DNA of 64,000 nucleotides, taken from positions 12,218 to 76,217 of the forward strand of contig JAFTZJ010000047.1 in assembly GCA_017461045.1 (NCBI GenBank), in the 5' to 3' direction. The notes beneath the pieces were generated by a model. The model had not been told where the DNA came from. It made no database searches and was given only the letters and a program-made list of their open reading frames with translations. Positions 1,646 through 39,225 of the stretch are shown here, in pieces; the stretch's first letter is position 1; every line of letters begins with the position of its first letter. The translations under genes were made by a program, and so were the position numbers. The stretch comes from Lachnospiraceae bacterium. GTDB taxonomy: Bacteria; Bacillota; Clostridia; Lachnospirales; Lachnospiraceae.

Positions 1646-2410
1646 TTGCTATCTGTCTATATATGTGAGGATAATCTTCTACATTTAAATCTATATAAAA
1701 CTATGATTGAAAACCTGATTATAATGGAAGAATATGATATGACCCTCCGAGCAGCCGTATCAGACCCGGACGAATTATTGTTTCTTGCTAAGCAAGAACG
1801 GACCCGGTTTTGCAATAGCGGTTTTTATTTGCTGGATATTGAACTGAACTCACATATGAATGGTTTGGAACTGGCTCAAAGAATTCGGGAATTTGATTCC
1901 CGAGGCTTTATTGTATTCCTGACTGCTCATTCCGAGCTTGCATTATCACCTTATAAGTATCATTTAGAAATAATGGATTTTATTCCTAAGGAGAAACCTT
2001 GGCATATAGGGCTGCGACTTCGCATGTGTCTGGATACCGCCTCCCAACGATACTACAAACAGGCACCATCACCTATCGTTACATTTAAAACCGGGTGTCG
2101 CACTATTTGTATAGAGGAACATGCTATCCTACTGATTGCATCTTCCTTTACTCCTCATAAAATTCTGGTTACTGACCACAATGGAGTCCGAGAATTTTAC
2201 GGTACACTAAAATCCTGTTCTGAGTTACTTTCTTCCGACTTCGTCCGCTGTCATAAAGCCTTTATTGTGAACATAAGACATATTGCAACCATTAATCACA
2301 CTACCATGACTATCACCCTCACAAACGGGGATAGTTGCATGGTTTCTTCCAGAGGACTCCGACAGGTTTTAAATGCCATTCATGATTCCGGTTCTTCCGT
2401 TGCAAAATAA
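1646..2410 (+). CDS. LytTR-family response regulator (receiver plus LytTR DNA-binding domain), no adjacent kinase
   Basis: 254 aa with a TTG start after SD GTGAGGGA. The receiver has acidic CEDN and the phospho-acceptor context YLLDIEL. The C-terminus is LytTR-like (FVRCHKAFIVNIRHI). Confidence 0.8.
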   Translation: MLSVYICEDNLLHLNLYKTMIENLIIMEEYDMTLRAAVSDPDELLFLAKQERTRFCNSGFYLLDIELNSHMNGLELAQRIREFDSRGFIVFLTAHSELALSPYKYHLEIMDFIPKEKPWHIGLRLRMCLDTASQRYYKQAPSPIVTFKTGCRTICIEEHAILLIASSFTPHKILVTDHNGVREFYGTLKSCSELLSSDFVRCHKAFIVNIRHIATINHTTMTITLTNGDSCMVSSRGLRQVLNAIHDSGSSVAK

Positions 2411-2459
2411 AGAATAAGTTGTTATAATTTTGGTGGAAAATCAGTAGGGAGGAAGAATT

Positions 2460-2702
2460 ATGACATATAAGACCCAGGGCGTTTGCTCTTCACAGATTTC
2501 ATTTGAAATTATTGATAATAAAGTATGTAATGTGAAATTTACCGGCGGCTGTAATGGTAATACCCAAGGGGTTGCAGCTTTGGTTGAAGGTATGGATGTC
2601 AATGAAGCAATCAAGCGCATGGAAGGCATTCGTTGCGGATTCCGTTCAACCTCTTGTCCGGATCAATTGGCAACTGCGTTAAAGCAAGCCATTGCACAAT
2701 AA
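2460..2702 (+). CDS. TSCPD-domain protein (TIGR03905-like)
   Basis: 80 aa with GVCSSQISF, FTGGCNGNTQGV and CG..STSCPDQLA motifs. SD GGGAGGAAG lies upstream. Confidence 0.75.
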   Translation: MTYKTQGVCSSQISFEIIDNKVCNVKFTGGCNGNTQGVAALVEGMDVNEAIKRMEGIRCGFRSTSCPDQLATALKQAIAQ

Positions 2703-2726
2703 TTTGCATAAATCAGGAGGAAATTA

Positions 2727-3794
2727 ATGAAACGAATCATTCTAACCGGCGGCGGTACTGCCGGACATGTTACTCCGAATATTGCTTTGATTCCTCGATT
2801 GAAGGAAGAAGGCTACGATATTCACTATATTGGTTCCTATGATGGAATCGAAAAAAAATTAATCGAAGATATGAAGATTCCTTATCATGGTATTTCATCC
2901 GGCAAATTGCGCCGATACTTTGACGTTAAGAATTTCTCAGACCCATTTCGTGTTGTTAAGGGTTACGGCGAAGCTGCCCGGCTTATAAAAAGTCTAAAAC
3001 CGGATGTAGTATTCAGCAAGGGTGGTTTTGTATCTGTACCGGTGGTAATGGCGGCAAAGAATCACAAGGTTCCTGCTATTATTCATGAATCTGATATGAC
3101 ACCGGGACTCGCCAATAAGCTTTGCATTCCATGTGCAACGAAGGTTTGCTGTAATTTCCCGGAAGCAATGGAACATTTGCCAAAGGAAAAGGCGGTGCTA
3201 ACCGGTACACCAATTCGTCAGGAGTTATTCAAAGGGGATCCTCTTGAGGCAGTAAAATTCACCGGCTTAGATGCCAACAAGCCAACGATTTTAGTTGTAG
3301 GCGGTAGCAGTGGTAGTGTCAAGGTAAACGAAGCTGTTCGGGAATGTCTGGATGACTTATTAAAGAACTATCAGGTTATCCATTTGTGCGGCAAGGATAA
3401 GGTAGATCCGGCATATGATAACCGCACCGGATATGTACAGTATGAATATATCAAAAAGGAATTAAGTGCCTTACTGGCATTTGCAGATATCGTAATTTCC
3501 AGAGCCGGCGCCAATGCCATCTGTGAATTACAGGCATTAGCCAAGCCAAACGTATTAATTCCCCTTGGTTCCAACGCCAGCCGCGGCGACCAGATTCTCA
3601 ATGCTGAATCCTTTGAAAAGCAGGGCTTCAGTTATGTAGTATTAGAAGAAAACCTTACGAAAGAATCCTTACTGGAAGCCGTTCAACAGGTATATGACAA
3701 ACGGGCCGATTATAAGAAAACTATGGAAGCCAGTCAGATGACCAATTCTATCGAAAAGATTATTAAACTGATTAATCGGGCTGCGAAACTGTAG
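2727..3794 (+). CDS. murG: UDP-N-acetylglucosamine--N-acetylmuramyl-(pentapeptide) pyrophosphoryl-undecaprenol GlcNAc transferase
   Basis: 355 aa with the N-terminal GGGTAGHV motif and GT28 layout (VVGGSSGS, ISRAGANAICE). Confidence 0.9.
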   Translation: MKRIILTGGGTAGHVTPNIALIPRLKEEGYDIHYIGSYDGIEKKLIEDMKIPYHGISSGKLRRYFDVKNFSDPFRVVKGYGEAARLIKSLKPDVVFSKGGFVSVPVVMAAKNHKVPAIIHESDMTPGLANKLCIPCATKVCCNFPEAMEHLPKEKAVLTGTPIRQELFKGDPLEAVKFTGLDANKPTILVVGGSSGSVKVNEAVRECLDDLLKNYQVIHLCGKDKVDPAYDNRTGYVQYEYIKKELSALLAFADIVISRAGANAICELQALAKPNVLIPLGSNASRGDQILNAESFEKQGFSYVVLEENLTKESLLEAVQQVYDKRADYKKTMEASQMTNSIEKIIKLINRAAKL

Positions 3795-3874
3795 ATAAAG
3801 CCGACACAACTTCGAAAATTAGATGTCACTGTAACCAAGCCGGGAACTGTCTGTAGCATTGCAATGAATGTTAT

Positions 3875-3926
3875 AGGCTGTCGTTCCAAACAATGAATAG
3901 CAATGCATTGTTTGGAACGACAGCCT
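3875..3926. terminator. Bidirectional terminator hairpin between convergent murG and the ABC ATPase gene
   Basis: Perfect long inverted repeat AGGCTGTCGTTCCAAACAATG ... CATTGTTTGGAACGACAGCCT, followed by CTTATTTATT on the plus strand. Confidence 0.65.
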
Positions 3927-3931
3927 CTTAT

Positions 3932-4906
3932 TTATTCCTTATGATACGCAATCCGAATAATATCATCAATGGTCGCTTCTTCTATTGTTACGTCCTTAAT
4001 AGCAATCTGCTCTGAAATCTCCTGTATCAACTGTGCCGCAGTAATGTCCTTTTTCATAAAGCGGTACTTACCAATGTTTTCTTCGTGGAAGAACAATTCT
4101 GCCTTAGGATGTTTAACACAGGTTTCGTCGTAAAATTCCACAATCAGATTCTTATACGGCGCAATCCGATCAATCAGTTCATTCAAAGGACCATCTTCAA
4201 TCAGCACACCATGATTAATAATAATCAATCGTTCACAGAGTTCTTGAATATCACCCAAATCATGGGTTGTTAAAATAACCGTTGTGCCCTTTACTTGATT
4301 AATCTCCTTGATGAATTTCCGAATGGCATACTTTCCGTCTACATCCAAACCAATGGTTGGCTCATCCAAAAACAGCACAGACGGAGAGTGTAACATAGCT
4401 GCTACCAAATCACCACGCATACGCTGTCCCAAGGAAAGCTGCCGCACCGGTGTATTGATAATCTCATTAATACCAAGAATATCGTTCATAATTTCCAGAT
4501 TTTCTTCATACTGTTTCTTATCAATCTGATAAATGTGACGCAGTAGCTCGAAGCTTTCTCCTAAACGCAAATCCCAGTTCAACTGACTTCGTTGTCCGAA
4601 TACTACACCCAAATCCTGTACTACTTCCTTACGATTCTTCTGAGAATTCTTCCCATTAATTAACACCTGACCACTGGTTGGTGTAAGGATACCGGACATC
4701 ATTTTAACCGTAGTACTTTTACCTGCACCATTAGGTCCGATAAAAGCTACGATTTCGCCTTTTTCGATTTCAAAGTTCAGGTCACGCACTGCATGAATTA
4801 CTTGTTTTTCGTTGGTTATTAAGTTCTTTACCGCACCCTTTAGACCTTTGCCCTTCTTGGCGATTTTATAATCCTTTACCAGGTGCTCTACCTGAATCAC
4901 TGCCAT
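3932..4906 (-). CDS. ABC transporter ATP-binding protein
   Basis: 324 aa with Walker A GPNGAGKST, signature LSLGQ and Walker B LFLDEPT. Confidence 0.9.
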   Translation of the reverse strand: MAVIQVEHLVKDYKIAKKGKGLKGAVKNLITNEKQVIHAVRDLNFEIEKGEIVAFIGPNGAGKSTTVKMMSGILTPTSGQVLINGKNSQKNRKEVVQDLGVVFGQRSQLNWDLRLGESFELLRHIYQIDKKQYEENLEIMNDILGINEIINTPVRQLSLGQRMRGDLVAAMLHSPSVLFLDEPTIGLDVDGKYAIRKFIKEINQVKGTTVILTTHDLGDIQELCERLIIINHGVLIEDGPLNELIDRIAPYKNLIVEFYDETCVKHPKAELFFHEENIGKYRFMKKDITAAQLIQEISEQIAIKDVTIEEATIDDIIRIAYHKE

Positions 4907-4921
4907 AGTGAACTCCTTTCA

Positions 4922-5737
4922 TTAATTACCTGCACTCTCATACTTCGTCAGTCCCCAGCGGAAGAATAACGCCGCCACAAGGAATGTCAGCACTCCAACG
5001 CCTAAGGTTACCCATATCGCACCCTGCCATGCAAACCGACCATTTGCCACACCCACCAATTCCGAAATCGGATAGAAGCTAACCCAGCCAATGGGAATCA
5101 GATACGTCAAAACCAACTGAACCCCTTCCGGATACATGGTAAGCGGATACATAGTTGTTTTATCAAAAAGTTCTTGGGTGTATGCTCCAAAATCATTAAC
5201 GCTCTTTGTGAAAAACGAGGTCGTACCAATAATCAAATAAATTGCGCCTCGAATAAGGGTAGCCCCAATCAATAATGCCAGAATCGCCAATACCCGATAA
5301 ACACTCCATTCAAATTCAATCTGAATACAACCGTAAACAAACACACATATTCCCGGAATCAAATCCGTAATTCCAATTAGATTGAAGCCGGTGAAAAAGA
5401 ACTGATACAACACATTCATGGGTCGCAACAGATAACGGTCAAATTCTCCTTCTATTACGTAGAAACCCATAAACCAACCTTGGACAAAAAATATCATGGA
5501 TAGGGCATGGGAAATAACAGATAATCCATATAAGAATGCCAACTGACCATAGCCCCATCCCGCAATGGTGCCAAACTCTGCTACCACAAATTGAATGGTT
5601 GCAAATCCAATCAGAAATTGAATCGGGTTTGATAACAACCAGCCAATCATATTCGCCGGATATTCCAAGGTCGTAAGAATGCTCATTTTTAAGTTTTCCA
5701 AGGTCACTCGCCCATAATGTTTGATTGTCTTGAACAT
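4922..5737 (-). CDS. ABC-2 family transporter permease
   Basis: 271 aa polytopic membrane protein, adjacent to the ATPase and to a paralogous permease. Confidence 0.6.
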   Translation of the reverse strand: MFKTIKHYGRVTLENLKMSILTTLEYPANMIGWLLSNPIQFLIGFATIQFVVAEFGTIAGWGYGQLAFLYGLSVISHALSMIFFVQGWFMGFYVIEGEFDRYLLRPMNVLYQFFFTGFNLIGITDLIPGICVFVYGCIQIEFEWSVYRVLAILALLIGATLIRGAIYLIIGTTSFFTKSVNDFGAYTQELFDKTTMYPLTMYPEGVQLVLTYLIPIGWVSFYPISELVGVANGRFAWQGAIWVTLGVGVLTFLVAALFFRWGLTKYESAGN

Positions 5738-5740
5738 CTT

Positions 5741-6547
5741 TTATCCTCCCTGCACCATTACTTTTTTCGTAACTCTGCTCTGCAAGAATTGGAACACTCC
5801 AAATAGTACCACAGTCCAAATAAATTGGATGCCTAATCTTGGCAATAGCTCTGCTGTCTCATATTTTCCAATGTAAATATCCAACGGCAATTGGTATATG
5901 TACACAAATGGTAGCAGATTCAGAATATTGCTTAACCAATCCGGGAAAAACCACATTGGAATAATACTACCGGACAACAGACGAATTAAATGCTTCTTTA
6001 CCTGCAACATCGGATCCATATTAATAGCCGTAAATGTCCACATGGAAAAGCATGCCGCTAAGAACCAGTTAATAAAAAATGCCATAATCAGGCTTATGAA
6101 AAACAACAAAAATGCTTCCATACTAACCGGCTTCGGAACAGCGATGCAAAGACTTCCGATGATAAAAATTGGTATCATATTCTGCACAATTAAGGCTGTC
6201 ATATTCCCCAAATCTTCAAAGAAATAAATACTGAACAGGTTAATAGGCTTCAGCATATCCGTAGCAACTGTTCCCTTTTTCACACTTTGCATTACCCGAC
6301 GCTCAATCCCTGTCATAAACACTACCGACATTAAGGAGGACATAACGGTGTACACCAGCATGTCCTCCACATTTACTCCCTGTACCGTTTCCTGTCCTGC
6401 ATACAATGCTTTCCAGAAGAATGCAGATGCGAACATGGTAATACATTGCATAACAATATTTCCATACACATCAAACCGATACGCCAGACTTTTCAATATT
6501 CGCGTTTTATATACATAGAAATACGCACTTCCTCTTGCTCTGTTCAC
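5741..6547 (-). CDS. ABC-2 family transporter permease
   Basis: 268 aa polytopic membrane protein, 3 nt from the downstream permease gene. Confidence 0.6.
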   Translation of the reverse strand: MNRARGSAYFYVYKTRILKSLAYRFDVYGNIVMQCITMFASAFFWKALYAGQETVQGVNVEDMLVYTVMSSLMSVVFMTGIERRVMQSVKKGTVATDMLKPINLFSIYFFEDLGNMTALIVQNMIPIFIIGSLCIAVPKPVSMEAFLLFFISLIMAFFINWFLAACFSMWTFTAINMDPMLQVKKHLIRLLSGSIIPMWFFPDWLSNILNLLPFVYIYQLPLDIYIGKYETAELLPRLGIQFIWTVVLFGVFQFLQSRVTKKVMVQGG

Positions 6548-11454: not shown

Positions 11455-13362
11455 ATGATTTACAATTACCATTATGACATTGCAGCACTTATGCTGATTG
11501 TCTTATTGATTTCAATCTATTTTTTGCGACGCAATTATCCGACAACTGCCAACAAAGCATTTTTGGCGATATTATTCTTCACCTTCACTGCTACGGTTTC
11601 GGATTTATTAAGTGCACTCACCATTCCGAAGGCTGATGAAATCCCTCTTTTGATTAATTATCTGATTAATATTATATATTTAATCAGTTATAATTCTACA
11701 GCTATTGTATTCTATATTTATGTTACCATCATTACAAAACAGTATCACAAGCGGTATACCAGAATCAGTGCTTATATTGCTTTTTGCGTAAACTCATTTA
11801 TTCTCCTTCCAACACCATGGACTCATTGGGGAATTTATTTTGATGAGAATTTTCAATATCAACACGGAGTACTCTTTCCGCTGCTCTATGTTTCTTCATT
11901 CTTGATGCTTCTGAGCACCATTTATTTCTTTTTCCGATATCGATATAACTTAAGCCGCTATCAGGTAGTATCCGTATTATTCTTTACTATTGCCATGATT
12001 AGCGCTGTTGTTTTCCAGATGTTCTTTCCGGCACAGCTTGTCGGCTGTCTGGTTTCAACACTGTTTACAGTGTTGGTATACATATCCTTGCAGAATCCGG
12101 AATACTATATCAACAGCCGGAATCGTTGTTACAATGAACATGCACTTAATGAAACTCTGCAACATAATATACGACATGAGAAAAGCTTCTCGCTACTTGC
12201 ATTCTCTTTGGACGGTTTTCAATATGTAAACCAACTACTGGGCACGGATGCGGGCAATCACTTAATCGATTCCTTTGTTCCGTTTTTACATTCTAAATAC
12301 GGAATCAATAATGTTTATCAATTAAGCGATGGTCGTTTTGCTATTATGCTACCAGACAAAAATGAAAAACCGGTTACCCGGGAGCTATTACAATTCTTCC
12401 AAACCCCTCACACGGTTCAGAATGTAAATGTGTTATTGACTCCCCACATCTGCGTTGTCCACTATCCGGATTTCGCACATACACCGGAGGATATTATTAA
12501 TACTATTGACTACACATTAAAATACAGCCTTGCTTCCAATACAGAAAAGCACATTACTGCATCCAAAGATGAATTAAAGAAAAGTACCCGAGAAACACAG
12601 ATTCTTCATGCAATGAAAAATGCTATTCATAATCAAGGTTTTCAAGTATATTATCAACCGATTTTTAATGCGAAGACGAAAAAATTCTCTTCTGCCGAAG
12701 CATTGGTACGACTCTATGATCCGGAGCTTGGTTTTATTCCGCCGGACGAATTCATTCCAATGTCTGAACGTAATGGTATGATTATCGATATTGGTGAGCA
12801 GGTGTTCCGTCAGGTATGCCAATTTATCCAATCCCACGACCTGAAAGAACTCGGTTTGGATTACATTGAAGTAAATCTTTCCTTCGTACAATGTATTCAA
12901 AATAACCTCTCCCAGAGGCTTACAGAAATCATGAAGAAGTATGATGTATTACCCCAACAGATTAACTTCGAGATTACCGAAACCGCAGGATCAACCAAGG
13001 CAAATGCACTTCAGAAAAATATGAATGGTCTTATTCGGGTTGGTTCAACCTTTGCAATGGATGATTACGGAACCGGATTTTCCACTGCAAACTACCTTGT
13101 GAATCTGCCTTTGGAGTTTGTTAAAATTGATAAAAGTATCTTGTGGTCCGCTATGGCTGACGAACAAGCCTTTACCATATTAAAGCACACTGTGGAAATG
13201 CTCCATGCGCTGAATAAGAAAATCATCGTAGAAGGTGTGGAAACGGAAGAAATGGTAGACATGCTTACTGACATGAACTGCGAATATTTACAAGGCTATC
13301 TTTACTCAAAGCCGATTAATTCAGAAGAATTTGTTATTTTCTTACAAAACTATATTGCATAA
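11455..13362 (+). CDS. Membrane sensor, degenerate GGDEF, EAL-domain c-di-GMP phosphodiesterase
   Basis: 635 aa. A multi-TM N-terminus is followed by a GGDEF-like region in which SDGRFAIML replaces GGDEF. The EAL domain has EALVRL, DDYGTGFS, KIDKS and EGVE motifs. Confidence 0.85.
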   Translation: MIYNYHYDIAALMLIVLLISIYFLRRNYPTTANKAFLAILFFTFTATVSDLLSALTIPKADEIPLLINYLINIIYLISYNSTAIVFYIYVTIITKQYHKRYTRISAYIAFCVNSFILLPTPWTHWGIYFDENFQYQHGVLFPLLYVSSFLMLLSTIYFFFRYRYNLSRYQVVSVLFFTIAMISAVVFQMFFPAQLVGCLVSTLFTVLVYISLQNPEYYINSRNRCYNEHALNETLQHNIRHEKSFSLLAFSLDGFQYVNQLLGTDAGNHLIDSFVPFLHSKYGINNVYQLSDGRFAIMLPDKNEKPVTRELLQFFQTPHTVQNVNVLLTPHICVVHYPDFAHTPEDIINTIDYTLKYSLASNTEKHITASKDELKKSTRETQILHAMKNAIHNQGFQVYYQPIFNAKTKKFSSAEALVRLYDPELGFIPPDEFIPMSERNGMIIDIGEQVFRQVCQFIQSHDLKELGLDYIEVNLSFVQCIQNNLSQRLTEIMKKYDVLPQQINFEITETAGSTKANALQKNMNGLIRVGSTFAMDDYGTGFSTANYLVNLPLEFVKIDKSILWSAMADEQAFTILKHTVEMLHALNKKIIVEGVETEEMVDMLTDMNCEYLQGYLYSKPINSEEFVIFLQNYIA

Positions 13363-32603: not shown

Positions 32604-32611
32604 AATCAGAC

Positions 32612-32652
32612 AAAAAGAGCGTAACAGATGTTTTCATCCGTTACGCTTTTTA
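32612..32652 (+). terminator. Terminator after argS
   Basis: Stem AGCGTAAC / GTTACGCT flanked by an A-run and a T-run (AAAAAGAGCGTAAC...GTTACGCTTTTT). Confidence 0.7.
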
Positions 32653-32667
32653 ATATCTATTAATGCA

Positions 32668-33111
32668 TTATTTCACCGTCATTTCCTTCATATACACGAT
32701 GTAATTGTTCGGCTTTTTCTCATCAAAAACAACCGGTACAAAGTAGGTTTGAGTAGATTTTTGAATTTCCTCAAAATTCATTAATGTTGTTTTACATATT
32801 CCCTTAAATATGTATGTTTTATCACTGTCGTAACAGGTAAAATCTGCTTTCAGTGAAAAACCTCTTACAAAATTCGGCTGTAATTCCATTGTTTCTTTTA
32901 TTAACTTAGCATACACTTTTTTACCGGTTTGCTTTAACTTCTTTTCTTCTCCTATTGCAAGAAAAATAAGAACACTCAAAACAACCACTATAATTGCTAG
33001 TGCAATTGTAATTACATTTAGTCCTTCAACCAAACATACACATATAAACGCTATCAATGATACTACCACCGACACTAACAATACTGATTTTATAATATTT
33101 CTCTTATTCAT
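32668..33111 (-). CDS. Small two-TM membrane protein, paralogue array member P1 (DUF3592-like architecture, unverified)
   Basis: 147 aa. Two N-terminal TM helices are followed by a roughly 85-aa beta-rich domain beginning GKKVYAKLIKE. Confidence 0.6.
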   Translation of the reverse strand: MNKRNIIKSVLLVSVVVSLIAFICVCLVEGLNVITIALAIIVVVLSVLIFLAIGEEKKLKQTGKKVYAKLIKETMELQPNFVRGFSLKADFTCYDSDKTYIFKGICKTTLMNFEEIQKSTQTYFVPVVFDEKKPNNYIVYMKEMTVK

Positions 33112-33123
33112 ACTCTTTGTTCC

Positions 33124-33585
33124 CTATACAACTCGCTCTAACGCTTCTCCCAAATACACAATTGATTTGCTTTCGTCCTGTTCTAAGTATCCTACTAATA
33201 CCACGATGTCTTCATGTTTCAATGCTTTTTCTAATGTTCTATAATGTATGAAATCTCTTCCGGAAAAAGTCAATGTCTTTCCCGTCTTTTCATCATGATA
33301 GGAAACGGAAGCTCGGACAATATACATCTCTCTAAAAAACAATCTTGACTTTACTGACTCTTTTATCAATGTTCCTTGAACAAACTTTCCTTCTTTATCG
33401 ATTTTTCTATCTTTTGAATACTCTGAAATAAATTTGTACCAGCATATAACGGCTACAACCATGTGCAGTATAGAAAGGATCATCTGTACAGTGGTACTTC
33501 CCTTGTTCGAAATCCAAAGAACAATTGCTGAACCTGTACTTATAAACGCAAATTGAAATGATACATAAAGCCATATAGATTTCAT
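33124..33585 (-). CDS. Small two-TM membrane protein, array member P2
   Basis: 153 aa with the same layout; the domain begins GKFVQGTLIKE. Confidence 0.6.
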   Translation of the reverse strand: MKSIWLYVSFQFAFISTGSAIVLWISNKGSTTVQMILSILHMVVAVICWYKFISEYSKDRKIDKEGKFVQGTLIKESVKSRLFFREMYIVRASVSYHDEKTGKTLTFSGRDFIHYRTLEKALKHEDIVVLVGYLEQDESKSIVYLGEALERVV

Positions 33586-33618
33586 TTTCTCTCCCCCTTT
33601 GTTGATAATATTGTTGTA

Positions 33619-34122
33619 CTATCTCCCTCGCATATTCTTCATCCTACATACTTCATCATATCGAATTATCTGTATCTCCTCTTCCTTTTCTGCTAGATAT
33701 TCTTGTAGCAAAATGGCTCCATGTTTTTTCATGTATTTATCTACAACAATATACATATCCGGATTCTTATCCAATATTTTACTCACTTCATATGTCTCAA
33801 CAATTACAGAAATCGTAGAATAGGTGTACCTCTGTTCTGTTTCCGGATCAATATAAGCTACTTTAATATATGTCCACGGACGATAAATCATATATTCGCA
33901 GACCTTTCCAACCAAAACTTCCCCGCGAGATATCATATTGTTGTATTTTCTCATTCTTACTATTTCTTCTATTAATATAATTAATGCCACAATAAGAAAA
34001 ACAAAAGCCACTTTCTTGCAGTCACTGAGCCATGAAATAATTATGACTACAATGCATGCAAATATTAGGACATTCTCCCACATGTTCCAGATTCGTTTAT
34101 TCTTAATCTTGATATTCTCCAT
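33619..34122 (-). CDS. Small two-TM membrane protein, array member P3
   Basis: 167 aa with the same layout; the domain begins GEVLVGKVCEY. It is preceded by 86-nt leader repeat copy A. Confidence 0.6.
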   Translation of the reverse strand: MENIKIKNKRIWNMWENVLIFACIVVIIISWLSDCKKVAFVFLIVALIILIEEIVRMRKYNNMISRGEVLVGKVCEYMIYRPWTYIKVAYIDPETEQRYTYSTISVIVETYEVSKILDKNPDMYIVVDKYMKKHGAILLQEYLAEKEEEIQIIRYDEVCRMKNMRGR

Positions 34123-34133
34123 ATCGCTGTTCC

Positions 34134-34219
34134 CACTCCCTTAATTTATCGACGGTTTGCGTGTTCGGAATCCCCTCTAAGTATTCACGAATGATGATCT
34201 TCTATTTGCTCTATTATCA
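34134..34219 (-). repeat. 86-nt leader repeat, copy A (upstream of P3)
   Basis: 84 of 86 positions are identical to 35877-35962 by my hand alignment. It ends in the SD AAGGGAGTG. Confidence 0.9.
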
Positions 34220-34233
34220 ACGTATTTAACCTC

Positions 34234-34701
34234 TTATCCATTGATTTTTTCGACTTCCTCTTCCAAAAACACATGGTATATGCTGTGATTTTCCTTTAAG
34301 TACACAACTTTCACTTCTTCAATCTCTTTTGTCTTTTCAACTATTTCTAATGGCATAAATCCAGAAATAATTGTCTTACCGGTAAATAATTCGATTGTCC
34401 CTCTCTCTTCATCAAAGCAACTAACCTGCGCTTCAACTTCGATACTATTTCTGCCAACTAATTTTGTTTTAACTAATTCAGGAACCAATTTACCGACAAC
34501 GTATGTTCCATTTTTCAGTTGTGCTTCTATTTTTATCTTTTTTCTTATATATATAGCCAAGACCACTAATAAAGATAATGAAACAAGTATACATAGCAGT
34601 AACACATATGGGATTTCATATAATACAATACCTAGAATCAATACAATTGCCGCACAAATTGATAAACTTATTACCAGCCCATCTTTGATAAATGCTTTCA
34701 T
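34234..34701 (-). CDS. Small two-TM membrane protein, array member P4
   Basis: 155 aa with the same layout; the domain begins GTYVVGKLVPE. Confidence 0.6.
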   Translation of the reverse strand: MKAFIKDGLVISLSICAAIVLILGIVLYEIPYVLLLCILVSLSLLVVLAIYIRKKIKIEAQLKNGTYVVGKLVPELVKTKLVGRNSIEVEAQVSCFDEERGTIELFTGKTIISGFMPLEIVEKTKEIEEVKVVYLKENHSIYHVFLEEEVEKING

Positions 34702-34708
34702 TAGTAAA

Positions 34709-34753
34709 TTACCCCCTCAGCGTCATTTCCTTCATATACACGATGTAATTATT
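34709..34753 (-). pseudogene. Relic 3' end of a P1-like paralogue
   Basis: The minus strand reads NNYIVYMKEMTLRG-stop. The 30 nt at 34721-34750 are identical to 32677-32706, which encode the C-terminus (NNYIVYMKEMT) of P1. No start or upstream frame is present. Confidence 0.6.
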
Positions 34754-34763
34754 AAAATTTTAG

Positions 34764-35324
34764 TTAAATCTCTTCATTTTCCCAAATTTCTTTTCGTTCC
34801 TTTTGGCTATTTATGTGATTCCAATACATAAACGGATAGAGAACAAGCATTACTACAAACAGAGCAATTCCACCCGAATACACACCAAAATCAGTCTCTA
34901 TCGGCTCTATCTGTTTGACAATAACAGCGAGTATTACACCCACTACTCCGCCACAAACAAGTACCATCATTTTCTTTCCCCATAAATTCGTTGGAATATA
35001 CGCACTTTGCCTGACAGCTATCCATGGTTTACTAACACTAACGCCAATCGTACATTTGTCTCCTATCCTGTCATTATGCTTCCTTCGTATGCAAACCCTA
35101 TTCTGCTGTGCATCTTCATCCTGAAACTGCATAATGCTTACTTCTCCCCAAGGACACTCTTTCAGTTCTATTATTTCGCCTAAATATGTTTTAAAATCTA
35201 TTTTAAGAATGCGTTTTAGCAACCAAACCAAAACATCTCCTAAACACTCCTGAACCAACAATATCGCTAAACAACCTACACATACAATTATGATAGTAAT
35301 TAGTACTTCATATATTTTTTCCAT
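34764..35324 (-). CDS. Membrane protein, array member P5 (TM, beta domain, two TM)
   Basis: 186 aa from MEKIYEV (ATG 35322-35324, SD GAAGGAGA); the track ORF extends to 35375, overlapping P6. The architecture differs from the other members in having C-terminal TM helices. Confidence 0.55.
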   Translation of the reverse strand: MEKIYEVLITIIIVCVGCLAILLVQECLGDVLVWLLKRILKIDFKTYLGEIIELKECPWGEVSIMQFQDEDAQQNRVCIRRKHNDRIGDKCTIGVSVSKPWIAVRQSAYIPTNLWGKKMMVLVCGGVVGVILAVIVKQIEPIETDFGVYSGGIALFVVMLVLYPFMYWNHINSQKERKEIWENEEI

Positions 35325-35328
35325 TCTA

Positions 35329-35865
35329 TCACTTTCTCCTTCTTTTGAAAAAATCCAATTCCGGTAATATTTCATCTTTGTACTTTATTTCATTCATGAT
35401 GCAGTACTCTTCGATTAATGCCATTCCTTTTCGCGGATTTTTCAAATCTACTATTATGCGAATATCCGGAGAGTTTTCAATAAATTGTTGCAGTCGAACA
35501 GGATCCATCACATATGTAGTAGTTGTCTTGTATTTATATGTTTTCTTAGTCTCAGCGTCTTCATATTTTGTAACCATTATAATTCCTGTTAGCTTCATAC
35601 CAGCTGAAACAGCACTTCCATTCACAATAGTTCCATGTTCCACTAAATATTTCTCTAATGATACTTCACGTATCAACAGAAACAAAGAGTCCCCAAACAT
35701 TGCAATGCACAAACCTGTTACAATCAAGAAGTACCCGGCATAGCCAATACCCTTAATAAACAATAGAACTTGTAATACAATAACCACTATCGTAGGTATC
35801 AGCGATATTAGCGTTGGAACAAAATAATATCGTTCATATAATTGTTTATTTCTCAAATCTCCCAT
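35329..35865 (-). CDS. Small two-TM membrane protein, array member P6
   Basis: 178 aa; the domain begins HGTIVNGSAVS. It is preceded by 86-nt leader repeat copy B. Confidence 0.6.
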   Translation of the reverse strand: MGDLRNKQLYERYYFVPTLISLIPTIVVIVLQVLLFIKGIGYAGYFLIVTGLCIAMFGDSLFLLIREVSLEKYLVEHGTIVNGSAVSAGMKLTGIIMVTKYEDAETKKTYKYKTTTTYVMDPVRLQQFIENSPDIRIIVDLKNPRKGMALIEEYCIMNEIKYKDEILPELDFFKRRRK

Positions 35866-35876
35866 TTATCTTTTTT

Positions 35877-35962
35877 CACTCCCTTAATATATCGACGGTT
35901 TGCGTGTTCGGAATCCCCTCTAAGTATTCACGAATGAAGATCTTCTATTTGCTCTATTATCA
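35877..35962 (-). repeat. 86-nt leader repeat, copy B (upstream of P6; touches the MATE stop codon)
   Basis: See copy A. The two mismatches are TTAATATATC versus TTAATTTATC and GAATGAAGATC versus GAATGATGATC. Confidence 0.9.
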
Positions 35963-37324
35963 TCGTAACCCTTCCACATTCTCCCGTGTAATATTCCTTG
36001 CCCATCTGTATTTCTTATAGTGTATATACACCGCTGGAATTTTTACGAACTCATCCAATGTAAGAATCGCTGCCACCACAAGCACCGGAGCATGCAGAAC
36101 AAATGCCGCAACCACACCTAACGGAACCACTACCGCCCACAAGGTAATCACATCGCAAATCATACCAAATCGTGTATCTCCTCCTGCCGGGAATATACCG
36201 GCAATAACTGTGGAATTCAGAGAATTTCCTATAATGTAATATGCCGCCATAAGCATCATGCCCTTCAAATAATATTCCGCCTGTGAACTCAACTCAATAA
36301 CCTGCATTACCAAAGGAGTAAGTGCCAGAATCACCAAGCCGGAACCAATACCAATCCATATAGAGAAACGCACAAAACTTCCCCCGGCTTTTTTCGCTTC
36401 TTCGATTTCATTTCTGCCAAGCATACCACCAATGATAATTCCTACACCCGCAGCAATTCCCCAACACAGGCTGGCAATCATACACCGTACGATTCCGGCT
36501 ATGGAATTCGCTGCCGTAGCATCGCTTCCCAGATGTCCCATGATGACCGAATACATGGTGATACCTCCACCCCAGCCAATCTGATTTATCAATAATGGTA
36601 TGGTAAATTTCCAGTAATCCTTATGCAGAATCTTATTAGCAGTTCCCAGCATCATTTTCACTCGCAGGGTAACACAACGACCTTGCAGCATGACGAATAA
36701 AACCGCAACCGCTTCAAATACTCTCGCACATACAGTTGCCAGTGCTGCACCCTTAATTCCCATTCCCGGAATTCCGGCAACACCAAAGATAAAACAAGCA
36801 TTTAAAATGATATTTATAACGACTGCCAAAGAACCAATAACCGAACTGAGTCTTGCCCTGTCACACACCTTCATAATTCCATAGTACACTTGAGAAATTC
36901 CGGTCAGCACAAAGGACAACGATACCACACGCAAATATTCGGCACCTGTTTCAATCAGTAACGGGTCCGATGTAAAAATATGCATAATTGCTTTCGGCAC
37001 AAATAAGGTTGCTAACGTGAAGATACCACCCACCAGCAAAGCATATCGCATGGTGATTGCCAGTACCGCTTCCACCGAATGCATTTCTTTCTTGCCCCAG
37101 TATTGTGCCGCCAGCACATTACAGCCACTTACAAATGCACCATAGAATAGCTGGTACACAAATGCCACCTGGGTTGCCAGAGATACAGCTGACAAGGAAT
37201 CCTGATCTAAGAATCCTAACATAAATGCATCCGATGCACTCACAAGTGATGACATTAAATACTGAAATGCAATAGGTGCTACAATAATATATAGTTTTTT
37301 ATAAAGCTCTCTGTACGTTTTCAT
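35960..37324 (-). CDS. MATE family efflux transporter
   Basis: 454 aa, 12-TM-type, with a typical MATE N-terminus (YKKLYIIVAPIAFQYLMSSLVSASDAFMLG). Confidence 0.9.
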   Translation of the reverse strand: MKTYRELYKKLYIIVAPIAFQYLMSSLVSASDAFMLGFLDQDSLSAVSLATQVAFVYQLFYGAFVSGCNVLAAQYWGKKEMHSVEAVLAITMRYALLVGGIFTLATLFVPKAIMHIFTSDPLLIETGAEYLRVVSLSFVLTGISQVYYGIMKVCDRARLSSVIGSLAVVINIILNACFIFGVAGIPGMGIKGAALATVCARVFEAVAVLFVMLQGRCVTLRVKMMLGTANKILHKDYWKFTIPLLINQIGWGGGITMYSVIMGHLGSDATAANSIAGIVRCMIASLCWGIAAGVGIIIGGMLGRNEIEEAKKAGGSFVRFSIWIGIGSGLVILALTPLVMQVIELSSQAEYYLKGMMLMAAYYIIGNSLNSTVIAGIFPAGGDTRFGMICDVITLWAVVVPLGVVAAFVLHAPVLVVAAILTLDEFVKIPAVYIHYKKYRWARNITRENVEGLR

Positions 37325-37352
37325 AATTATTAGTTACTTTCACATAATTTTT

Positions 37353-38534
37353 CTACACAGTCGCATTTACCGCAATCTTGTAAATGGCTGCCACATCGTC
37401 TGCGGACAATGGCTGGAATCCCCCTGTCATTCCATCACCAACGCCAAAATTCTTAACCAATGTCGGGATATCTTCCTCCTTTGCTCCCAACTGTTCGAAA
37501 TTAATTGGCATTCCAATAGATACTAAAAATTCCCGGAACTTGCGGATTCCTTGCAATGCAGTTTCCTTCGGATTCTGGAAATTCATTTCACATCCCCAAA
37601 CCCGGGTTGCTACCTGCGCAAATCGCATCACATCATGATCAACCACATACTCCATCCAAGATGGCATGATAACAGCCAGACCTGCACCGTGTGCACAATC
37701 ATATAAGCCGGACAATTCATGCTCAATTCCGTGACTGTTCCAGTCTTGACTTCTACCCACACCAACAACACCATTATGAGCTACCATACCTGCCCACATA
37801 ATATTGGCTCTGGCTTCGTAGTTATTCGGATTTTCAATAACTCGCGGTGTTTCTTTTACCATTGTAAGCAAAACAGCTTCGCAAAGACGGTCAGTAATTT
37901 CAACCTCTTTTGTATTTGTAAAATAGCGTTCAAACACATGCGCCATAATATCAGTTGCTCCACAGGCAGTCTGGTATGGTGGCAGAGTGCATGTTAATTC
38001 CGGATTTAAAATTGAGAACCGCGGACGCATAGCATCACCGCCGGCACCACGTTTTACCATTCCTTCTTCCTTCGTAATTACCGAGTCACCGGAGCCTTCA
38101 CTACCTGCTGCTGCAATTGTCAGCACAACACCTACCGGCACTGCAGTTTGGAACTCCGCTTTTCCGGAATAAAAATCCCAAAAATCTCCTTCATAAGGAA
38201 CACCTACTGCAATCGCTTTGGCACTATCAATACAAGAACCTCCACCTACGGACAGAATAAAATCAATCTGTTCCTTTCTACATATCTCAATTCCTTCGTA
38301 TACTTTTCCATCTCTTGGGTTCGGCTGTACGCCTCCCAATTCTACATACGGAATCTGTTCTGCTTCCAAAGACTTTTTAACACGATCCAACAATCCGGAA
38401 CGTACGACCGAGCCGGAACCATAATGAATCAAAACCTTACTTCCCCCATACTTCTTTACATATGCTCCACAGTCATTTTCCCTCTCTTTTCCAAATACAA
38501 ACTCCGTTGGGCTACAAAAATTAAAATTCTCCAT
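37353..38534 (-). CDS. Iron-containing alcohol dehydrogenase (butanol dehydrogenase/YqhD-like)
   Basis: 393 aa with GGGSCIDSAKA and metal-binding His motifs (HVFERYFT, HGIEHELS). Confidence 0.9.
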   Translation of the reverse strand: MENFNFCSPTEFVFGKERENDCGAYVKKYGGSKVLIHYGSGSVVRSGLLDRVKKSLEAEQIPYVELGGVQPNPRDGKVYEGIEICRKEQIDFILSVGGGSCIDSAKAIAVGVPYEGDFWDFYSGKAEFQTAVPVGVVLTIAAAGSEGSGDSVITKEEGMVKRGAGGDAMRPRFSILNPELTCTLPPYQTACGATDIMAHVFERYFTNTKEVEITDRLCEAVLLTMVKETPRVIENPNNYEARANIMWAGMVAHNGVVGVGRSQDWNSHGIEHELSGLYDCAHGAGLAVIMPSWMEYVVDHDVMRFAQVATRVWGCEMNFQNPKETALQGIRKFREFLVSIGMPINFEQLGAKEEDIPTLVKNFGVGDGMTGGFQPLSADDVAAIYKIAVNATV

Positions 38535-38574
38535 ACTTCCTTCTCCTTTACTTTACTTCATTTCTTTTCTCTTA

Positions 38575-39225
38575 TTATAAACGCTTCCTACAACTTCGTC
38601 TTCTCTTTTTTGTATTCTTCGATGCAGTTATTTTCACCACTGTATTCTCTCTCTTATATTCCGCAATTTGTTCTGCAATAGTGTTGTAATCCCGTTGAAA
38701 TAATTCTTCACACATCTGCTTCTGCAATATATCTGCCGGTACCTTCTCAAGAATCTTCTCAACTACAAAGTCCTTACTTTTTTGTTTGTACTTTGGCAGT
38801 TGATTCAGTTCCTGAATGTGTGCCAGTTCCGGTCTCCATAGCATTCCCAGCTTCTTATTCCATTTTACCTTCGGATTTTGAGCAGGCTTTCGCAATATGT
38901 AGAAATCCGTTTTTTCATGTTCTTCCTCAACGGTTATGATCCCCCATTCCTTGGGCACATGCTCCTCAATATGCATGGCATGTCGGGTTCCCACCACTAC
39001 GTAATTATAATCATAGTATTGATTATAGTCCCGTACCTGCCTTTTTAACCTGGCATAGGTGTCTGCATCACTTTTTATCTCTATACCATAGATTGCATTT
39101 GGCGTTACCATAACCACATCCGCTCTGGATTTCCCCATTCGCTTTTCTTCAATGATTCGATTTTTACCATAAGTTTCATCGAGAAAGTCAAACAGCGTTT
39201 CCCGAATATCTTTATCGTACAACAT
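38575..39225 (-). CDS. PD-(D/E)xK-like protein, sce7726-family-like (tentative)
   Basis: 216 aa. SRADVVMV ... YGIEIKSDADTYARLKRQ fits a D...E-x-K nuclease core and my memory of the sce7726 family pattern. It has a basic C-terminal tail (KKRRRSCRKRL). Confidence 0.45.
   Translation of the reverse strand: MLYDKDIRETLFDFLDETYGKNRIIEEKRMGKSRADVVMVTPNAIYGIEIKSDADTYARLKRQVRDYNQYYDYNYVVVGTRHAMHIEEHVPKEWGIITVEEEHEKTDFYILRKPAQNPKVKWNKKLGMLWRPELAHIQELNQLPKYKQKSKDFVVEKILEKVPADILQKQMCEELFQRDYNTIAEQIAEYKRENTVVKITASKNTKKRRRSCRKRL

Follow-up and report, generated by a model that had tools for sequence, protein, structure and literature searches.

An array of small membrane-protein genes in a Lachnospiraceae bacterium, probably a toxin-less immunity gene set from an Rhs locus

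Six small membrane-protein genes between argS and a MATE efflux gene

Contig JAFTZJ010000047.1 of a Lachnospiraceae bacterium (assembly GCA_017461045.1) carries, in the 64,000-nucleotide stretch analysed here (contig positions 12,218 to 76,217; called the window, whose numbering is used below), a tandem array of six genes for small membrane proteins, P1 to P6, placed between argS and a gene for a MATE efflux protein (Table 1). A sequence-only reading of this DNA had described six consecutive minus-strand open reading frames (ORFs) of 147-186 residues at this place, and all six are indeed intact. Shine-Dalgarno-like sequences precede each of the genes (6 of 6), and the gaps between neighbours measure 4-111 nucleotides (nt). 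The P5 start used here is the ATG that has an AAGGAG ribosome-binding site and yields 186 residues; an earlier ATG would yield 203 residues and an overlap with P6. A terminator-like hairpin, which sits between the array and the convergent argS, would mark the end of the array's transcription unit. The A+T richness of the array relative to its flanks, previously judged by eye, has now been computed: the G+C content is 0.337 in the array and 0.40 across the window, and argS and the MATE gene have values of 0.421 and 0.437.

Five of the six proteins can be joined by sequence. Pairwise BLASTP connects P2 with P4 (33% identity, E = 4e-10), P1 with P4 (25%), P1 with P2 (23%) and P3 with P6 (25%), and when homologues were added, the P1/P2/P4 group matched the P3/P6 group in a profile-profile comparison (hhalign 97.5%, E = 5e-12, 105 columns), so P1, P2, P3, P4 and P6 constitute one diverged family. 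The proposal of six paralogues therefore holds for these five, whereas P5 has no detectable sequence similarity to them. Hydropathy assigns to each of the five two N-terminal transmembrane (TM) helices, separated by a loop of at most six residues and followed by a soluble domain of ~90 residues, and an AlphaFold2 model of P4, built from a 40-sequence alignment, has a helical hairpin and a barrel of six strands and one helix (mean predicted local distance difference test, pLDDT, 90.6); the shared architecture of two helices and a beta-rich domain that had been read from the translations is thus borne out. Lysine and arginine residues are clustered ahead of the first helix and past the second in these two-TM (2TM) proteins, from which the positive-inside rule predicts a cytoplasmic location for the barrel and for both termini.

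P5 differs in topology, and its predicted order of one TM helix, a domain and two further TM helices was confirmed by hydropathy. Neither BLASTP nor profile comparison detected similarity of P5 to the other five array proteins or to any family, including the DUF3592 profile and the profiles of the 2TM family; it has no sequence relatives outside its own cluster and is known only in this species. Its single-sequence model (pLDDT 55) is unreliable and too poor for a fold search. By its position in the array, P5 is a candidate immunity protein of another type.

Table 1. Array genes and surrounding features of the window; the last two columns give synonymous divergence (dS) and the ratio of nonsynonymous to synonymous divergence (dN/dS) between the window and the sister strain described below
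Feature	Position	Strand	Description	dS	dN/dS
Intrinsic-terminator-like hairpin	32618-32647	minus	13-bp stem, then T run; 3' of P1		
P1	32668-33111	minus	147 residues; 2TM + OB-like domain; P1/P2/P4 subfamily; candidate orphan immunity protein; 87% amino acid identity, most diverged between strains	0.17	0.38
P2	33124-33585	minus	153 residues; 2TM + OB-like domain; P1/P2/P4 subfamily; candidate orphan immunity protein	<=0.02, nearly identical	0.8 (4-6 changes only)
P3	33619-34122	minus	167 residues; 2TM + OB-like domain; P3/P6/P7 subfamily		
Scar 2 ('leader' before P3)	34119-34224	minus	Internally deleted P7-like gene		
P4	34234-34701	minus	155 residues; 2TM + OB-like domain; P1/P2/P4 subfamily	<=0.02, nearly identical	about 3 (4-6 changes only)
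Relic of P1-like gene 3' end	34717-34753	minus	95% identity to 32673-32709		
P5	34764-35324	minus	186 residues; TM, ~85-residue domain, two TM helices	<=0.02, nearly identical	0.26 (4-6 changes only)
P6	35329-35865	minus	178 residues; 2TM + OB-like domain; P3/P6/P7 subfamily	0.11	0.09
Scar 1 ('leader' before P6)	35862-35967	minus	Remains of P7		
MATE efflux gene	35960-37324	minus	Context only		
Iron-type alcohol dehydrogenase (ADH) gene	37353-38534	minus	Context only		

Rhs genes at homologous loci

The cluster representative of P4 led to contig JAZXWT010000018.1 of a sister strain (GCA_052847695.1), which shares 97% DNA identity with the window through argS and past it. From the start of that contig, the gene order is an Rhs fragment, P7, P6, P5, a relic, P4, a scar, P2, P1 and argS. 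The Rhs fragment encodes 693 residues, among which seven RHS repeats are recognised (E = 1.8e-54). Its Rhs-associated core, TIGR03696, spans residues 472-553, ends '...VEGNPVNYLDPFGM' and is followed by a tip of ~140 residues with hydrophobic segments. P7, which is intact in the sister strain only, encodes a 204-residue member of the P3/P6 subfamily and starts 38 nt before the Rhs stop codon. The MATE gene of the window finds no similar sequence on the sister contig upstream of the point where P7 starts; in the window it holds the position of the sister's Rhs gene and abuts what is left of P7 (scar 1), as it also does in an identical 121-kb contig in ENA. The sequence ATGA (35960-35963) holds both the start codon of the 11-codon ORF in scar 1 and the stop codon of the MATE gene, so the MATE gene meets the former, putative immunity gene with single-base precision. 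The gene order of the two strains shows the array to be the remnant of an Rhs toxin/immunity locus.

The association with Rhs genes recurs elsewhere, since a member of the family directly follows a hydrophobic Rhs tip in all seven of the distinct pairs found. The members P0002, P0042 and P0049 lie no more than 82 nt from, or overlap, the end of a gene that encodes '...VEGNPxxxLDPFGLEK' and a hydrophobic tip. P0002, which is 54% identical to P4, lies 82 nt 3' of a fragment with 'NYLDPFGLEK' and such a tip (contig L036); P0042, found on five contigs from different samples (L042-46), shares 20 nt with its Rhs tip and precedes a new Rhs repeat fragment; and P0049, on three contigs (L047-49), starts one base past the stop codon of a tip that is visibly homologous to the sister strain's, with another Rhs fragment on its 3' side.

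Further loci were retrieved by a search from the toxin-tip alignment, separate from the look-up of family members. In a Lachnospiraceae metagenome-assembled genome (L050), a complete Rhs protein of 1,496 residues, with 23 RHS repeats and an N-terminal DUF6531, is encoded by a gene whose 3' end is overlapped by an ORF matching the family profile (E = 4.9e-22); orphan Rhs tips lie further downstream, one of them with a 195-residue ORF that has a P5-like topology and no similarity to P5. The G+C content at this locus is 0.455 in the Rhs body, 0.349 in the tip and 0.274 in the immunity gene, and the low value of the array is similar. In human-gut metagenomes, an Rhs tip is overlapped by a family member of 256 residues (L066/67/69), and another tip by a 291-residue protein in which a P6-type module is fused to a P4-type barrel (L068). 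On one of these contigs (L069, 1489-1979) the tip is split by a frameshift, the overlapping family member is intact and a second member comes next, an arrangement that looks like a halfway stage on the way from a toxin/immunity pair to an orphan immunity gene. Tips that differ have different family members as partners. These loci show a tight and recurrent coupling between the main family and short hydrophobic Rhs tips.

Two arrangements at these loci extend the range of architectures. Fusions of ~290 residues, P0010, P0013, P0019 and the one at L068 (475-1350), which lies directly 3' of its Rhs tip, consist of a complete P6-type module (two TM helices and barrel) and a P4-type barrel joined by a conserved 'RWDGSY' linker; they suggest that the two subfamilies can work jointly, or as a double immunity protein. 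At L050, an ORF of 653 residues with a PKD domain (53-2014) precedes and overlaps the Rhs gene (1957-6447), and the two may form one secreted protein or the former may be a delivery partner.

In polymorphic toxin systems, the immunity gene directly follows the variable tip (PMC3150448, PMC4436062); because the genes for the 2TM-OB proteins occupy this place, they probably encode immunity proteins. The array is thus likely to be a toxin-less ('orphan') immunity gene set from an Rhs polymorphic-toxin locus, and the orphan repertoire against polymorphic toxins that the sequence-only reading had proposed gains support from the sister's Rhs gene directly upstream of the same array and from the Rhs-tip pairs. 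Accessory factors that serve export, maturation or membrane insertion of the toxin in its producer could also be encoded in tight linkage with the toxin gene and overlap it in translation, and this is the only point in favour of such a role. Known Rhs helper genes, however, lie upstream of or within the delivery part, the gene after the tip being the one for immunity (PMC3150448, PMC4436062). A six-gene array of accessory factors would not persist without a toxin, and the family varies together with the tip, so an accessory function is highly improbable.

Comparison with known families bears on a further alternative. Neither the six array proteins nor P7 had a significant match in Pfam or NCBIfam, the catalogued immunity families among them, including the T7SS (type VII secretion system) membrane immunity protein TsaI (DUF443). 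Phage exclusion and receptor masking had also been offered as functions, and small, fast-diverging membrane proteins encoded in an AT-rich, strain-specific island would suit such roles, or bacteriocin immunity, with no relation to Rhs. The six proteins had no significant match in PADLOC or PHROGs, where TM regions gave only noise, between P1 and the PADLOC '4TM effector' (E = 7e-4, a weak match that could be counted for this alternative) and between P4 and a PHROG without assigned function (E = 1e-3), and no relatives of the family were found in viral contigs. Phage or bacteriocin genes are absent from the window locus and from the homologous loci examined, all of which have an adjacent Rhs gene, so proteins of this kind are exceedingly improbable here.

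The comparison of loci shows that the ancestral locus comprised a gene for an Rhs/YD-repeat protein with a short hydrophobic C-terminal tip and, immediately 3' of it, a gene for a protein with two TM helices and an OB domain, and that more genes of the latter kind accumulated downstream. Deletions at microhomologies then took out some of these genes, differently in each strain, and this genome lacks the toxin gene and the first candidate immunity gene (P7), with six intact genes left. By hydropathy and by analogy with Tse5, discussed below, the Rhs tips may be membrane-inserting toxins that depolarise the membrane or form pores. Each small protein is predicted to form a helical hairpin in the cytoplasmic membrane, with its N-terminus and OB domain in the cytoplasm, and could bind, in or at the membrane, one variant of the toxin and so neutralise it. 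Most likely, the orphan set would shield the cell from the Rhs toxins of neighbouring strains that still carry them.

Deletion, divergence and distribution

One 106-nt repeat precedes P6 and another precedes P3; the two share 92% identity and have no further copy in this genome, the assembly of which is 67.5% complete. Each repeat is a fusion of the first ~10 and the last ~19 codons of P7 with the ribosome-binding site of the next gene; the first ~10 codons also encode, in another frame, the last 10 residues of the Rhs tip, which are 100% conserved (tblastn). The junction between CTTCAT and TCGTGAATAC lies at a TCATT microhomology and is identical in three copies, the two scars of the window and the sister's second copy, so there was probably a single deletion in a P7-like gene whose product later spread by duplication or conversion; another possibility is that an intact module was regained by the sister strain.

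The 37-nt repeat between P4 and P5 is the 3' end of a lost P1-like gene and is also found in the sister strain, and when the intact genes, scars and relic are counted together, the ancestral array had at least nine such genes. Copy number at the argS locus, a comparison that had been proposed from the sequence, differs between the strains: P3 is present in the window and was deleted in the sister at a TCGATA microhomology, and the reverse holds for P7. Aligned over the array, the two strains show that its content differs between them through deletions. Earlier candidates for these short elements were given up. The 106-nt 'leader' matched no RNA element in Rfam at E <= 5 and is a gene scar by comparison with P7, and a regulatory role for the 'conserved leader' and for the 'relic C-terminal fragment' was rejected, both being scars of deleted immunity genes. 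A library representative of 104 residues, P0037, has a TM region nearly identical to that of P3 and a different N-terminal extension of ~55 residues, which points to a third arrangement upstream of P3 in another sample.

Between the window and the sister strain, the genes that flank the array have dS values of 0.07-0.11 and dN/dS values of 0.03-0.06. The array itself is a mosaic in its divergence (Table 1), a pattern that fits recombination inside the array and a constraint that is weaker than, or different from, that on housekeeping genes; from two strains, the dN/dS values are compatible with diversifying and with relaxed selection alike.

The family is rare. An exhaustive HMMER search of 1.84 billion representative proteins with the family profile returned 59 proteins at E <= 1e-3, of which 27 reached E <= 1e-10. 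No true member of this protein family occurs in 200 sampled genomes of the same taxonomic family, one congener included, and none lies at the argS locus of ten congeners. A sample of 400 genomes of the order yielded nothing but distant relatives, which are two-domain or stand-alone proteins whose genes have no Rhs gene within ~1.5 kb.

In comparing the locus across the genus, argS was used as the anchor, the MATE gene being unsuitable as it is not conserved there. A homologue of the 216-residue gene found in the window at 38575-39225 is the next recognisable gene after argS in seven of the ten congeners and abuts argS directly in four of those seven. The MATE gene, the ADH gene and the array are missing from this site in all ten, so the block of ~6 kb that contains them (about 32604-38574) is lineage-specific. 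The argS-parA interval is generally variable in the genus and holds ordinary accessory genes elsewhere. An integration hotspot for toxins on the argS side was considered and rejected, since congeners hold genes for an exonuclease, a HAD phosphatase, a GNAT protein and membrane proteins at the site. The 216-residue gene itself has a precomputed Pfam assignment to PF26915 (Phage_P4_cII).

The incomplete assembly (67.5%) yielded no match to RHS repeats and no WXG100 gene. One contig (C44, 56255-58268; L038) ends inside a gene with the Rhs-associated core TIGR03696 (61 bits, above the cut-off), a glycine-rich hydrophobic stretch and an unassigned C-terminal domain of ~300 residues, and next to it lies a 128-residue ORF without a family. 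These two genes are a candidate for a second polymorphic toxin/immunity pair in the genome, and because of the Rhs-core gene, the organism appears to carry polymorphic toxins of the Rhs class that are of another type.

Several observations count against an orphan immunity set. The toxic activity of the Rhs tips is predicted from their hydropathy, the tips themselves matching no Pfam family and no solved structure, and a cognate Rhs gene could be located elsewhere in a genome that is 67.5% complete. Distant relatives of the family stand alone, so the fold by itself does not imply immunity, and P5, which lacks relatives and a reliable model, owes its proposed role to its place in the array. In addition, dN/dS is 0.8 for P2 and about 3 for P4, in each case from 4-6 changes, and one gene has been lost by deletion in each strain, both of which are compatible with decay.

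These last points could indicate that the array is a decaying relic of the Rhs locus, whose genes no longer bring any benefit and are disappearing through deletion and drift. Such decay would account for the loss of a different gene per strain through microhomology deletions, for the three scars and relics, for dN/dS values near or above 1 in P2 and P4 (few changes) and for the lack of a cognate Rhs gene among the contigs of this incomplete genome. The ORFs are, however, intact and equipped with ribosome-binding sites in two strains and in the identical ENA contig, P6 and P1 have dN/dS values of only 0.09 and 0.38, and orphan immunity genes are kept against kin in other systems (PMC5361080). 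A decaying relic is therefore unlikely, and retention of the array for immunity is preferred.

Relation to DUF3592 proteins and to known toxin/immunity systems

The sequence-only reading had likened the layout of these proteins to DUF3592. As a claim of membership this did not stand, because the DUF3592 profile (PF12158) matched none of the six proteins even at E <= 1 and none of 40 family members; across the genome, at E <= 10, contigs C17 and C39 were the only ones with matches, to two true DUF3592 genes, and the array had none. What did stand is a more distant connection. The domain of the family is homologous to the second domain, unannotated in Pfam, of proteins with the order TM, DUF3592, TM, second domain (hhalign 99.2%, E = 2e-19, 92 columns), and only a marginal match (57%, 21 columns) links it to DUF3592 proper. 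Foldseek searches with the P4 model returned only generic OB folds from the PDB (SSB, PriB and S17, all at E > 4e-3), and in BFVD the single match at E <= 1e-3 was a 'DUF3592 domain-containing protein' (E = 8.7e-4, TMq 0.40). DUF3592 is, like the domain of the array family, a small beta-barrel anchored in the membrane, but its topology is TM-domain-TM, whereas that of the array family is 2TM-domain. DUF3592 therefore probably represents a real but remote neighbourhood of the family. A word-indexed protein search with the array proteins returned almost only their own clusters.

The array can be compared with several systems in which tips, immunity genes or both have been characterised. In Pseudomonas aeruginosa, Tse5 (RhsP1) is an Rhs protein whose pore-forming tip of ~149 residues, which belongs to no enzymatic family, depolarises target cells, and the adjacent gene encodes Tsi5, a small immunity protein of the cytoplasmic membrane with two predicted TM regions (PMC9637101). 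In layout this pair resembles the Rhs pairs described here, in which an Rhs tip is likewise accompanied by a two-TM protein. Tse5 is delivered by a Gram-negative type VI secretion system (T6SS) through its PAAR-like N-terminus, whereas the host of the array is a gut bacterium of the Clostridia, and the candidate immunity proteins of the array have an extra OB-like domain of ~90 residues.

Orphan modules of the Rhs class are known from Enterobacteria, where strings of displaced tip and immunity modules (rhs-CT/rhsI) lie 3' of a full rhs gene, recombine via retained short homologies and have a G+C content below that of the Rhs body (PMC3150448, PMC3967940). The window differs from these in being a pure immunity array from which the Rhs gene is missing; unlike the displaced tips of Enterobacteria, the only tip sequence left consists of the bases that overlap the start of the immunity gene. 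In Vibrio cholerae, T6SS effectors were replaced or lost and the old immunity genes kept in strain-variable orphan arrays (PMC5361080), and the orphan immunity genes of gut Bacteroidales follow the same pattern (PMC12247911); for both, protection against kin that retain the old effector has been proposed. Both sets of arrays differ from the one in the window in delivery system and protein families, the window array being made up of one diverged family and P5.

Firmicutes also carry tandem, non-identical immunity paralogues (esaG, tsaI and tipC) at T7SS loci, where genes are lost and gained by recombination through conserved blocks located at their 5' and 3' ends, and TsaI, itself a membrane protein, counteracts a toxin that depolarises the membrane (PMC9484751). 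The toxins in that case are LXG/T7SS substrates, and by Pfam the immunity families are unrelated to that of the array; the deletions in the array use microhomologies of 5-6 nt, in contrast to the gene-end blocks used by the T7SS paralogues.

The Rhs toxins of Gram-positive gut anaerobes have received little study. While the kind of locus is well known, the tip family, which is uncatalogued, the candidate 2TM-OB immunity family and its link to the DUF3592 neighbourhood are new. The locus defines an uncatalogued pair, a short hydrophobic Rhs tip and a candidate 2TM/OB immunity family, with seven distinct natural pairs, and two strains of one species illustrate how a weapon locus may turn into a pure shield, in which the toxin is lost, immunity is kept and single genes are deleted. 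For a domain that is related to DUF3592 proteins, themselves uncharacterised, the locus also offers a functional setting that can be tested.

An LXG toxin locus of S. suis includes a gene for a DUF3592 protein of 'unclear function' (PMC12482557). It is tempting, though rather doubtful at present, to see in the 2TM-OB family the first branch with a functional placement in a broader DUF3592-like superfamily, whose members, including the DUF3592 proteins of LXG loci, might act as intramembrane or juxtamembrane 'clamps' against membrane-inserting polymorphic toxins, with conserved gene-end blocks serving as recombination handles for cassette swapping.

Proteins that combine the two domain types recur in other genomes (L004-L006, L053, L055, L056, L058 and L059), where ~240-residue products consist of a TM helix, DUF3592, a second TM helix and a second barrel; the latter is unannotated in Pfam and homologous to the array domain, and these genes have no Rhs gene nearby. 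At two of these loci (L055 and L058), a gene for an AraC-type regulator lies directly 3' of the DUF3592 gene.

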